This document shows positions 3,397 through 18,379 of a stretch of 53,344 nt of DNA, in pieces; positions within the stretch are counted from its first letter, which is position 1, and every line of letters begins with the position of its first letter. The DNA lies in assembly GCA_030426825.1 (NCBI GenBank), contig JAUHXX010000001.1, positions 1 through 53,344 of the forward strand, read 5' to 3'. The DNA is from Bacteroidia bacterium. Lineage in GTDB: Bacteria > Bacteroidota > Bacteroidia > Flavobacteriales_D > Crocinitomicaceae. Under the pieces are notes generated by a model. That model did no database searches. It saw only the letters and a program-made list of their open reading frames with translations, and was not told the origin of the DNA. A program made the translations under genes and the position numbers.

Positions 3397-4053
3397 ATGA
3401 AAAAAATACTTACACTATCCGCGCTATTTTTTGCACTAGGTTCATTTGCACAAGTTGGCGTTAAAGAAACTAATGTCAATATAGATGGTGGCAAAAATGG
3501 TTTTGAAATAGAAATTCCATATGCTGATAAAAAAACTACAGAAAAAGAGCTAAAAGACTTATTTAAAAGCTGGAAAGGCAGTTTTTCAGATAAAAAAGGG
3601 GTCATGAAGTCTGACGACTGTAAAGACAAAGACATGGGTGAAAACACTTTTGACGTTTACGGAACTGTGGTAGAAAACGGTGAAGATGGGTCGAAGGCTT
3701 TGGTGGCCGTAGATTTAGGAGGAGCTTATTTAAATTCTTCTGATCACAGTTCTCAATTTAAAGTGATGGAAAGCATTTTAAAAGTATGGGGTGTTAAAAC
3801 AGCTACCATTTACGTGCAGGAAGTTGAAAAAGAAGAAGAGAAAATCTTAAAAGACAAAGAAAAAGAACTGAGCGACTTGGAAAAAGATCAGGAGAAGATG
3901 GAAAAAGAAATTGAAGATTATAAAAAGAAGATCGAAGACAACGAAAAAGCCATTGAGCAAAGCAAGAAAGATCAAGAAGAAAAGAAAACTGAGATTAAAA
4001 CTCAAGAAGGTGTATTACAAGAAGTAATCAAGAAAAAAGAAGGAATTAAATAA
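3397..4053 (+). CDS. Secreted hypothetical protein with C-terminal coiled coil
   Basis: Signal peptide, globular alpha/beta region, then a ~75-aa K/E-rich heptad tail. Confidence 0.8.
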   Translation: MKKILTLSALFFALGSFAQVGVKETNVNIDGGKNGFEIEIPYADKKTTEKELKDLFKSWKGSFSDKKGVMKSDDCKDKDMGENTFDVYGTVVENGEDGSKALVAVDLGGAYLNSSDHSSQFKVMESILKVWGVKTATIYVQEVEKEEEKILKDKEKELSDLEKDQEKMEKEIEDYKKKIEDNEKAIEQSKKDQEEKKTEIKTQEGVLQEVIKKKEGIK

Positions 4054-15004: not shown

Positions 15005-15045
15005 ATAAATAGAACAGTTCGCTATACTAAAAAGTTACTTTCAAT

Positions 15046-15078
15046 AAAAAATGGGCTTCCTTTAGGAGGCCCATTTTT
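15046..15078. terminator. Intrinsic terminator (U-tracts on both strands)
   Basis: A6-TGGGCTTCC-ttta-GGAGGCCCA-T5. Confidence 0.8.
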
Positions 15079-15128
15079 CAACAGTAAGTAGCGTTCAAGG
15101 CTTTGAGCGCTGTGTAGAGTTTCTGAGT

Positions 15129-15206
15129 TTAATTGACTAGGTGGATCACCTCCACATTTGCGCACACGAAAACTGTTTTAATTTCAGTTGCAACAAGATT
15201 AGTCAT
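15129..15206 (-). CDS. Candidate 25-aa small protein MTNLVATEIKTVFVCANVEVIHLVN
   Basis: ATG...TAA ORF below the ORF-track cutoff, A-rich upstream region, followed by a hairpin and a terminator. Confidence 0.45.
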   Translation of the reverse strand: MTNLVATEIKTVFVCANVEVIHLVN

Positions 15207-15510
15207 GATGGTCTTTTTAAAAGCCGTTAGCAAGAAATGCTAAAAAAATGGGCAAGTGGCTTCGTTGGACTTTTAATTCGAATTTTCTTATTCAAATTTA
15301 AATTCAAGTCAAAAATAACGTACTCAGAATAGTCATTTTTACTTTCAATAGAATTTAAGTTATGCATTCATTTAAAAATCGAATTAAGCTTTTAACGGTT
15401 TCAAACTAGGATTTTAACAACCTGTTCTCAAGGTGATCGCCAAAAGTTAGGGCAATTTACAACAAAATACTTTACAGCACAAATAATTTTTACGGCTTAA
15501 AAGCAATCTA

Positions 15511-16234: not shown

Positions 16235-16816
16235 TTATCCGTGAATTGAAGCTTTTTGACCATACGATTGAATGATTTGTTCTTCAAATACCAGCCATTC
16301 ATTCCAACGTTGAGTTACCTTTTCTATATCCCCGTACTGCTTAGCAAAACCTAAAAACATGGTGTAATGATTCGCCTCTGAAATCATTAGCTTGCGATAG
16401 AATTCAGCCAATTCTGGATCCTTAAAGTTCTCTGACAGCACTTTAAAACGTTCACAACTTCTAGCTTCAATCAGTGCCGAAAACAACAGTCGATCAATAA
16501 AACAATCCAATCTATCCCCTCCTTTTTCACAAAACTTGTAGAGACGATTTACATAATCATCCTTCCGTTCTCTTCCCAATTCAAGCCCTCTTTTTTTAAT
16601 GATTTCATGCACCATTTTAAAATGCTCAAGCTCTTCATCAGCCAGTTCAAGCATAGCATCTACCAAATCAGTTTTTTCAGGATTTAAAGTAATTAATGAA
16701 ATGGCATTTGTTGCAGCCTTTTGCTCGCACCAAGCATGATCGGACAGAATTTCCGAAATATCATTTTCAACTATATTCACCCAACGAGGGTCAGTCTTTA
16801 ATTTCAATCCTAACAT
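16235..16816 (-). CDS. miaE: tRNA-(ms2io6A37) hydroxylase
   Basis: DHAWCEQKAA, EELEHF, LIEARSCERF, SEANHY di-iron motifs; start at MLGLKL. Confidence 0.95.
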   Translation of the reverse strand: MLGLKLKTDPRWVNIVENDISEILSDHAWCEQKAATNAISLITLNPEKTDLVDAMLELADEELEHFKMVHEIIKKRGLELGRERKDDYVNRLYKFCEKGGDRLDCFIDRLLFSALIEARSCERFKVLSENFKDPELAEFYRKLMISEANHYTMFLGFAKQYGDIEKVTQRWNEWLVFEEQIIQSYGQKASIHG

Positions 16817-16893
16817 GCTTTTTTCTTTCAAAATTAAGAATAAATGATTTCGGTAAAATAAATCTGTTCCCGAAACGACTTAATGAAGTACAT

Positions 16894-17106
16894 ATGAAAC
16901 TATATAACTTTAAAACCAATATTACGAGTAAAAAGAAAGCGCAAAATTTAATGCTCTTGTTACAGAATTACTTTAATATCATATCTGCCGAAATTGATTT
17001 TGAAAAGATGAAAGGACTTATGAAAATAGAATCACCTGAACTTTCACCAATCAAGGTCACCAAAGTTCTAAATGAATTTGGATACACTTGTGAGGAAATT
17101 AATTAA
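16894..17106 (+). CDS. Small HMA/copper-chaperone-fold-like protein (70 aa)
   Basis: FKTNIT...IDFE...MKIES...LNEFGYTCEEI; this is the 3' part of the 16696..17106 ORF. Confidence 0.65.
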   Translation: MKLYNFKTNITSKKKAQNLMLLLQNYFNIISAEIDFEKMKGLMKIESPELSPIKVTKVLNEFGYTCEEIN

Positions 17107-17443
17107 TCCTAGCGTCTATTATGGCTATTAAGTCATGCAAATTCAAGTCTTTTAATTCGGAAGAAGCAACCAATTGTTCTATATTCTCTGAGTTCTCTAA
17201 CAAAACAACTGGGCAATTAAATTTTTTCTCCGCGGCTGATCGTTGATTGCAATATTTAAACTCGGTATTCACCTTGATTTCCGAAATGAAGTTTGCCCAA
17301 TCTTTCTTGCTTCCAAAATTCCCATGAGTTATGGAGCATAAATCGCAGGCATAGGTTTTGGGAGAAAACACTTTATGTAAAAAATCAACAGATTGATTGA
17401 ACATGCCTGACTTAGCATTATAAATGAAAATTAGCTTTTGCAT
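17099..17443 (-). CDS. Conserved hypothetical protein with CxxC (thioredoxin-like)
   Basis: IFIYNAKSG...HKVFSPKTYACDLCSITHG...CPVVL. Confidence 0.75.
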   Translation of the reverse strand: MQKLIFIYNAKSGMFNQSVDFLHKVFSPKTYACDLCSITHGNFGSKKDWANFISEIKVNTEFKYCNQRSAAEKKFNCPVVLLENSENIEQLVASSELKDLNLHDLIAIIDARIN

Positions 17444-17452
17444 GACCTAGTT

Positions 17453-17486
17453 AAAATAACAAAGCCCAACGATTGTCGGGCCTTGT
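17453..17486 (-). terminator. Intrinsic terminator
   Basis: ACAAGGCCCGAC-aatc-GTTGGGCTTTGT-TATTTT; fully paired (two G-U) only on the minus strand. Confidence 0.75.
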
Positions 17487-17562
17487 ACACTACTTACTTT
17501 GGAATTACATACTGCTTTTGAAAAACGTTTTTCTCTACTTACAGAAAACCATGAAAAAACTC
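17453..17562 (-). ncRNA. Candidate small RNA (~105 nt) or attenuated leader
   Basis: Bounded by a TATATTTG -7 element and a 12-bp terminator stem; no meaningful ORF; two GTAAGTAG copies. Confidence 0.55.
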
Positions 17563-17567
17563 TATCT

Positions 17568-17601
17568 CAAATATAGCATTCATTTTAACACTAAAAACAA
17601 A
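17568..17601 (-). promoter_or_regulatory. Bacteroidota promoter (TTTG -33, TATATTTG -7)
   Basis: TTTG at 17601-17598 and TATATTTG at 17575-17568, 22-nt spacer. Confidence 0.6.
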
Positions 17602-17692
17602 AAATAGATTTATCCACCAATTGTCTAGCTGAATACTAATATTTTAACGACCAATTAAAAATCTACCCCCTAAAAATTCTTACTTTTGGTGG

Positions 17693-18379
17693 ATGACTCA
17701 AATACCAAAAAGTAGTTTAGACTTCATAAACAAACTTTCAAAAAATAACAACCGAGACTGGTTCAATGCCAATAAGGACAACTACTTAAAGGAACATGAA
17801 CATATCATTTCATTTGCGGACCAACTATTAGCTGCAATGAACCTACATGACAATATTGAAACAGTTTCTGGTAAAAAATCGTTGCACCGCATATATAGAG
17901 ACACCAGGTTTTCAAAGGATAAAACTCCTTACAAAAATCATTGGAGCGGAGGATTTAAGAGAGCCACTCCACAATTAAGAGGGGGCTATTACTTTCATAT
18001 TGCACCAGGCAATTCGTTCGCAGCGGGCGGGTTCTGGGGTCCAAACTCAGATGATCTTAAACGAATTCGAGAAGAAATTGCATTGAGTGGAGATGATTTT
18101 AGAGATGTTTTTGAAGAAAGAAACTTTAAATCATTGTTTGGAAACCTAAGAGGAGAACAGCTTAAATCGGCACCAAAAGGATATCCAAAAGATCACACAG
18201 AAATTGAATTGTTGCGATACAAACAGTTCCTAGTTAAAAGAGATTTCACAGATCAAGAAGTTATGGCGACCACTTTTCTATCTGAGTTGAATAAAACATT
18301 CATTGGAATGAGACCTTTTTTCGATTTAATGAGTGAAGTTCTTACAACCAACTCCAATGGAGAATCAACATTGAAATGA
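17693..18379 (+). CDS. DUF2461 family protein
   Basis: NNNRDWFNANK, RIYRDTRFSKDKTPYK, GYYFHI, LKSAPKGY. Confidence 0.92.
   Translation: MTQIPKSSLDFINKLSKNNNRDWFNANKDNYLKEHEHIISFADQLLAAMNLHDNIETVSGKKSLHRIYRDTRFSKDKTPYKNHWSGGFKRATPQLRGGYYFHIAPGNSFAAGGFWGPNSDDLKRIREEIALSGDDFRDVFEERNFKSLFGNLRGEQLKSAPKGYPKDHTEIELLRYKQFLVKRDFTDQEVMATTFLSELNKTFIGMRPFFDLMSEVLTTNSNGESTLK

Follow-up and report, generated by a model that had tools for sequence, protein, structure and literature searches.

We identified a small RNA (sRNA) gene of marine-type Bacteroidota on the minus strand of the window, the whole 53,344-nt stretch of DNA that was analysed (contig C395, part of a 3.6-Mb genome). Judged from sequence comparison, the gene is real and restricted to one genus, and it has a promoter box and a terminator of its own. 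Two blocks of the predicted RNA are invariant. One is complementary to start codons and the other to Leu-Leu-Thr codons, and thus many secreted-protein messages are likely to be blocked in translation. Our preferred reading, to which we give a probability of about 0.55, is that this is a trans-acting base-pairing sRNA that would block the translation of many secreted-protein mRNAs, and that a nearby element with complements of both blocks (the partner, Table 1) would be its decoy. By analogy, the RNA is likely to be a repressor similar to GibS and FopS, without belonging to either.

Table 1. Features of the predicted sRNA gene, its neighbours and the partner element (positions in the window).
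Feature	Position	Strand	Description
Bacteroidota -7 promoter box TATATTTG	17575-17568	minus	invariant in 10/10 homologues; consensus TAnnTTTG
Predicted sRNA gene	17563-17453	minus	111 nt; +1 set by the 4-nt spacer at FopS loci
Block A, invariant 5' seed	17544-17563 (nt 1-20)	minus	AGAGUUUUUUCAUGGUUUUC; antisense to GAAAACC-AUG-AAA-AAA-CUC-U; similar to R1 of FopS/GibS
Central hairpin	17512-17544	minus	4-bp stem, 5x4 internal loop, 6-bp stem, 4-nt loop; compensatory changes
Block B, invariant, single-stranded	17487-17508 (nt 56-77)	minus	second GUAAGUAG at 17497-17490; complementary both to Leu-Leu-Thr codons and to the partner
Intrinsic terminator hairpin and imperfect U tract	17453-17486	minus
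114-aa ORF	17099-17443	minus	starts 10 nt past the U tract; differs from the usual downstream neighbour
DUF2461 gene	17693-18379	plus
Partner element	15122-15083	minus	complements of blocks A and B; 2.4 kb from the sRNA, same strand
Partner A', AAACUCU	15116-15122	minus	complements nt 1-7 of block A; invariant in 7/7 aligned genomes
Partner B', ACGCUACUUACU	15083-15094	minus	12-nt complement of block B, one G-U; 11/12 nt invariant in 7/7 aligned genomes
Terminator-like hairpin closing the partner	15046-15077	minus

The gene sits between two divergent genes, the 114-aa ORF and the DUF2461 gene. A Pfam search with the 114-aa ORF returned no family above the cut-off. A TAnnTTTG box at 17681-17688 on the plus strand ends 5 nt 5' of the DUF2461 ATG, suggesting that this mRNA is leaderless. 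In the accessible part of PMC9723704, TAnnTTTG is the Bacteroidota -7 promoter consensus. A preliminary description of the region had proposed an RNA of ~105 nt between a consensus promoter and a strand-specific terminator. A terminator-like hairpin (17486-17459) was indeed found on the minus strand only, and the TATATTTG box serves as the promoter, but TTTG at 17598-17601 is not conserved among homologues. We inferred the +1 (17563) and the length with a 4-nt promoter spacer borrowed from FopS loci, which replaces ~105 nt by a predicted 111 nt. A sigma-70 promoter scan, which is unsuited to Bacteroidota, was discarded (7 promoters found, 7.2 expected).

When 60 relatives were searched, the element was found in 7/7 same-genus genomes (82-92% identity, E 1e-31 to 1e-50), and the other 53 gave no match better than E 2e-4. 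A covariance model run across 150 genomes of the family returned the same distribution as the sequence search; its three weak matches outside the main locus fell on terminators, lacked the 5' seed and were rejected. Two metagenome contigs supplied further homologues. Six records carry the same element, four of them titled Crocinitomicaceae, one Flavobacteriales and one Arenicella; the title of the last (L040, Arenicella sp.) may be misassigned. In ten sequences the conserved stretch runs from TATATTTG to the U tract. The downstream gene encodes a 116-118-aa secreted-type protein in eight homologues and the 114-aa protein in the window and L044. Conservation is thus bounded by the promoter box and the terminator and is independent of the downstream gene, which supports the independent sRNA with a base-pairing seed that the preliminary description had suggested. 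Like trans-acting sRNAs in general, the RNA has its own promoter and terminator, a conserved unpaired seed and no conserved ORF. No RNA contig covers 17477-17716 in the one metatranscriptome whose contigs were used, an absence that proves nothing.

The minus strand folds with -27.2 kcal/mol (z -3.26) and the plus strand with -13.5 (z -0.58), both compared with shuffles. The central hairpin is paired in 100% of cells in eight genomes. For the central hairpin and the terminator together, 98.6% of cells are paired in ten sequences and four pairs have changed on both sides, although the central-hairpin fold was derived from the same sequences on which it was scored, so that the scoring favours it. 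The internal loop reads AGUA/GAA in 7/10 sequences and, we presume, resembles a loop-E (bulged-G) motif. The predicted openness of block A is 0.33-0.63. The preliminary description reported two copies of GTAAGTAG, one of them displayed in a hairpin loop. Both copies are present on the minus strand at 17535-17542 and 17490-17497, and TTTTCT/AGAAAA flank the first. Since 56 occurrences of the 8-mer were counted on both strands of the genome, a second copy within 111 nt is expected by chance at ~1e-3 per site (our own arithmetic). The loop display was not borne out: 38/200 shuffles were equally stable, no compensatory change was seen, the UUUUCU/AGAAAA stem is broken in 7/48 cells (8 genomes), and covariation supports a different fold. 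In that fold the first GUAAGUAG spans the stem and the internal loop of the central hairpin. This copy is variable; it is exact in 3/10 homologues and lost in L044, and its AGUAG core is kept in 9/10. Therefore, of the proposed duplicated seed only the second, single-stranded copy stands, and the loop copy is no conserved seed. The invariant 5' block against start codons, which links the RNA to FopS and GibS, had been missed.

Block A reads GAGUUUUUUCAUGGU and has GUUUUU(U)CAU(A/G)GU in common with both the FopS consensus and the 5' terminus of GibS (rows of the PMC11697453 supplement). The FopS consensus and GibS both begin with GUGUUUUUCAUAGU (PMC11697453). We compared the block with the 2960 ORFs of our own gene calls, for which gene starts and signal peptides were assigned by crude heuristics of our own. 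Pairing of block A was stronger at start windows than in coding controls (difference -1.03 kcal/mol), and 0/40 shuffles were as low. The complement of block A, ATGAAAAA, ranks 1 of 65,536 8-mers around the gene starts of the window's genome. The signal-peptide heuristic was passed by 60 of the best 100 block-A targets, compared with 33.7% overall; this excess arises partly because MKK starts pass the heuristic (211/272). Among the proteins behind perfect 13-nt complements of block A, blastp found no orthologous pair in the 30 of 38 loci examined. Because the seeds are invariant in all homologues, there is no covariation between seed and target to draw on.

The exact complement of block B, CTACTTAC, reads CUA-CUU-AC, which encodes Leu-Leu-Thr. 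It occurs in the first 34 coding nucleotides of 6/993 signal-peptide genes and 0/1959 others, with one further site in all remaining bins from -60 to +240. The enrichment that the preliminary description had pointed to in UTRs is therefore positive, but it is seen in the opening codons of signal-peptide genes. Between +6 and +45 of these genes, CTACTTAC ranks 80 of 65,536 8-mers (7 seen, 0.25 expected), and it ranks 1 of the 56,064 8-mers with at least three G/C, a cut-off chosen afterwards. The number of top-1% 8-mers in block B was matched by 14/1402 GC-matched segments, block B included, and by 54/5000 shuffles. Block B showed no preference for windows from -20 to +20 (31/40 shuffles as low) and a weak energy preference for +3 to +33 (5/60 as low). 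In five relatives, which are not independent of each other, ATGAA followed by CTACTTAC was found 61 times and the opposite orientation 27 times (p 4e-4); the 61 sites include five sibling-RNA sites and three nested repeats. Thirty-eight of the 61 are in frame, and the opposite-orientation control is itself mildly frame-biased (14/27). Predicted targets with sites for both seeds are on contigs C182, C226, C236 and C169 of genome G000.

The seeds of the sRNA recur in sibling elements at unlinked loci, where they read as a contiguous anti-'MKKLLT'. In genome G000, GTAAG was found in 8 of the 27 terminator-upstream windows that hold TTTTCAT and in 45 of 1362 others (p 3e-6, in a test run after four such loci had been seen). 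Elements with GUAAG and UUUUCAU lie just 5' of terminators on contigs C29, C96, C109, C142, C235, C288 (two sites) and C359 of this genome. Several are within 3' UTRs and are candidate 3'-derived sRNAs. The antisense of 5/8 hand-picked sibling elements spells MKK and then LL (LLT, LLLLT, LLLLMLT, LLTL and LLY), with three frames allowed and a one-base bulge needed in three of the five. One sibling element has an identical core in five relatives. Summed over eight genus genomes, GTAAG-N-TTTTTCAT gave 315 matches and a control 202; among 20 hand-picked sites, a terminator was called at eight, and several of the rest proved to be ordinary gene starts on the opposite strand. A CTACTTAC site near 4043 (minus) on C14 of G000 is also 5' of a terminator-like hairpin, and it adjoins what we take to be a tRNA-like stretch and an integrase-like ORF.

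Other RNAs carry the 5' seed as well. A second Crocinitomicaceae sRNA family of ~65 nt (L214-L216, L218-L222, L225, L226, L228 and L231-L243) has the same 5' seed and was found, in 24/50 loci read and in five genera, 5' of a gene that is presumably ppk1-like. In G000 this gene starts at the contig edge. Eight loci of the family were scanned against Rfam and gave chance-level matches only, none of them relevant. A third seed-bearing element, bounded by a promoter and a terminator and with a variable body (C191:631-724 of G000, or L110; L247; L293), occupies a syntenic position in G000, G006 and G004. When the C191 sibling was used as a DNA query, no homologue was retrieved; the counterparts in G006 and G004 were found otherwise. 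Across the phylum, the pattern of promoter plus seed matched 83 of 401 genomes. Fifty of these loci were read, and they included 12 FopS-like loci and 7 other short terminator-bounded RNAs without an Rfam match. L120, L124-L128 and L131 are short terminator-bounded RNAs with a FopS-like 5' seed and no RF04319 match, representing two other families of the class. Within the order, promoter plus GTTTTTCAT matched 68 of 201 genomes. Most of the 50 loci that were read lay antisense to gene starts or were intragenic, and thus we make no order-wide claim.

FopS of Bacteroides (Rfam RF04319; PMC11697453) resembles our RNA in its primary-sigma promoter, its intrinsic terminator and its single-stranded 5' seed, in which UUUUUCAU is antisense to AUG-AAA. 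The two are also alike in having several seed-sharing paralogues per genome and predicted targets among exported proteins (PMC11697453 for FopS). In our RNA, an R1-type 5' seed with UUUUUCAU lies just 3' of the TAnnTTTG promoter. However, the R1' extension (GUAUUAGAUUUAAGG), which pairs 5' of the AUG in the supplement consensus of PMC11697453, is absent. The sequence after the seed is unrelated, the length is 111 nt compared with a 71-position model, and the RNA comes from a different bacterial order. The single-stranded 5' part of FopS directly precedes the terminator, whereas here there is an extra covarying hairpin, a second seed aimed at codons past the start and a linked partner element. 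FopS has 12-15 alignable paralogues per genome, while our covariance model finds one copy in G000, and the seed-sharing siblings are otherwise unrelated. RF04319 has no match in the window, none at E<=10 in 16800-17750 and none in four homologue loci, while all six FopS-like loci submitted as a positive control match it (gathering threshold 56 bits). The sRNA is therefore not a member of RF04319. An Rfam scan found no family at gathering in the window and chance-level matches only for the RNA. GibS of Bacteroides is similar in having a conserved single-stranded 5' seed, a middle hairpin, a linear stretch, a terminator and two seeds (PMC7366714, in the part accessible). R1 and R2 of GibS, which is 145 nt with promoter motif 2, are adjacent within the 5' 30-50 nt (PMC7366714). 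In our 111-nt RNA the hairpin splits the seeds and the second adjoins the terminator. The Rfam search gave no GibS match for this sRNA. Judged by sequence, what appears to stand out beyond FopS and GibS is the second seed and the linked partner. We found no publication that describes this RNA, or seeds directed at signal-peptide codons, in a literature search that reached subscription papers and bioRxiv supplements only to a small extent.

The partner keeps CGCUACUUACU, and AAACUCUA 30-41 nt upstream of it, amid variable sequence in seven genomes. Its pattern matched 7/8 genus genomes and 1/193 others, and there were 11 control matches. A' precedes B', as at an mRNA start; an inverted copy would have the opposite order. 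No Rfam family was found for the partner (chance-level matches only). It lies at the end of a 500-nt intergenic stretch (15045-15472, minus) with a conserved upstream block (15362-15472), and the stretch is possibly an abundant ncRNA of ~400 nt. In G034 the upstream block occurs in another context, before an unrelated gene and without the complements. RNA contigs of the one metatranscriptome cover 15100-15343 at a depth of at least 433 (bin mean 834), and the listed pieces over flanking genes have a depth of no more than 78; this coverage is a hint only, because expression cannot be ranked by contig depth and carried-over DNA may contribute. Sponge (target-mimic) RNAs of enterobacterial sRNAs are second non-coding RNAs that carry the complement of a seed. 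The partner would be alike in this, but it appears to copy two separated sites in mRNA order.

The partner might also be the chief target of the sRNA, the two being a dedicated RNA pair and the match to signal-peptide codons incidental. We consider this doubtful. It would fit the conservation of both complements in seven genomes, the RNA contigs over the partner and the strength of the block-B duplex (-18 to -28.5 kcal/mol over 12 bp, compared with -7 to -11 for the 5' end of block A). Complements of 12 nt to block B that contain no more than one G-U number six in the genome, a count that includes the block's own antisense strand. However, G007 (95% complete) lacks the whole partner interval while its sRNA and both blocks are unchanged, the partner's match to block A extends over only 7-10 of the block's 20 nt, and the seeds also occur in the unlinked siblings. 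It is rather unlikely that the GUAAG/GUAG repeats are sites for an RRM protein similar to RbpB, which the RNA would titrate, as the preliminary description had considered, or by which it would be escorted. B. thetaiotaomicron RbpB binds three copies of GUAGGAUA with a KD of 5.1 uM (10.1101/2021.04.27.441718, as far as its accessible text goes), and it binds FopS and GibS (PMC11697453, likewise). The genome has one RRM_1 match, and the retained AGUAG core would suit such a site. Nevertheless, the first copy, placed in an internal loop, is missing from L044, the invariance around the second copy spans 22 nt, which is more than an RRM site, and the exact complement of block B is conserved in the neighbouring element. 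Protein binding could coexist with base-pairing.

The two other explanations concern the locus itself. A role as 5' leader or attenuator for the gene downstream, where there is no space for a separate promoter, seems improbable to us. A same-strand ORF starts 11-23 nt past the terminator stem in 9/9 homologues, the U tract is imperfect, and an RNA contig, for which DNA carry-over is possible, extends from the terminator loop (17476) into the ORF. Yet the blocks stay invariant while the downstream gene changes, and the consensus fold shows no conserved antiterminator; read-through can coexist with an sRNA. Least likely of all, the locus encodes a tiny peptide or is an untranscribed conserved DNA site. 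A 5-codon frame, MVFx(K/E), is present in 9/10 homologues and the opposite strand reads as an MKKL start. However, the 5-codon frame extends to 35 aa in L044, and the opposite frame stops after MKKL in 5/6 relatives shown and reaches 18 aa in the window. Small ORFs on either strand were thus rejected. Covariation in the stems and G-U pairs point to a minus-strand RNA rather than a DNA site.

We therefore favour a trans-acting repressor. The sRNA would be transcribed from its own promoter. Block A would pair over -8 to +12 of MKK-type starts, as shown for FopS and GibS, and block B, by itself or jointly with A, would pair inside the first 15 codons. Such pairing would block initiation in the manner of FopS and GibS; FopS-10 blocks translation by binding beside the start codon (PMC11697453). 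The partner would titrate the sRNA by presenting both complements in mRNA order. In our model, pairing of both seeds on one molecule would require two crossing helices.

Bacteroidota mRNAs are without Shine-Dalgarno sequences, and to our knowledge sRNA target choice in this phylum is known from a handful of Bacteroides cases. Secreted and outer-membrane proteins are central to polymer degradation in Bacteroidota. More tentatively than the reading above, we suggest that an sRNA family may read signal peptides at the RNA level, with seeds antisense to the codons of the MKK n-region and the Leu-rich h-region. It might thus throttle exported proteins as a class without Hfq or a Shine-Dalgarno target, and the member described here might be checked by a linked abundant ncRNA that mimics, at two separated sites, the 5' end of a message coding for a signal peptide. 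If this is true, a seed that matches signal-peptide codons would provide a simple rule by which secreted and outer-membrane proteins could be controlled class-wide.
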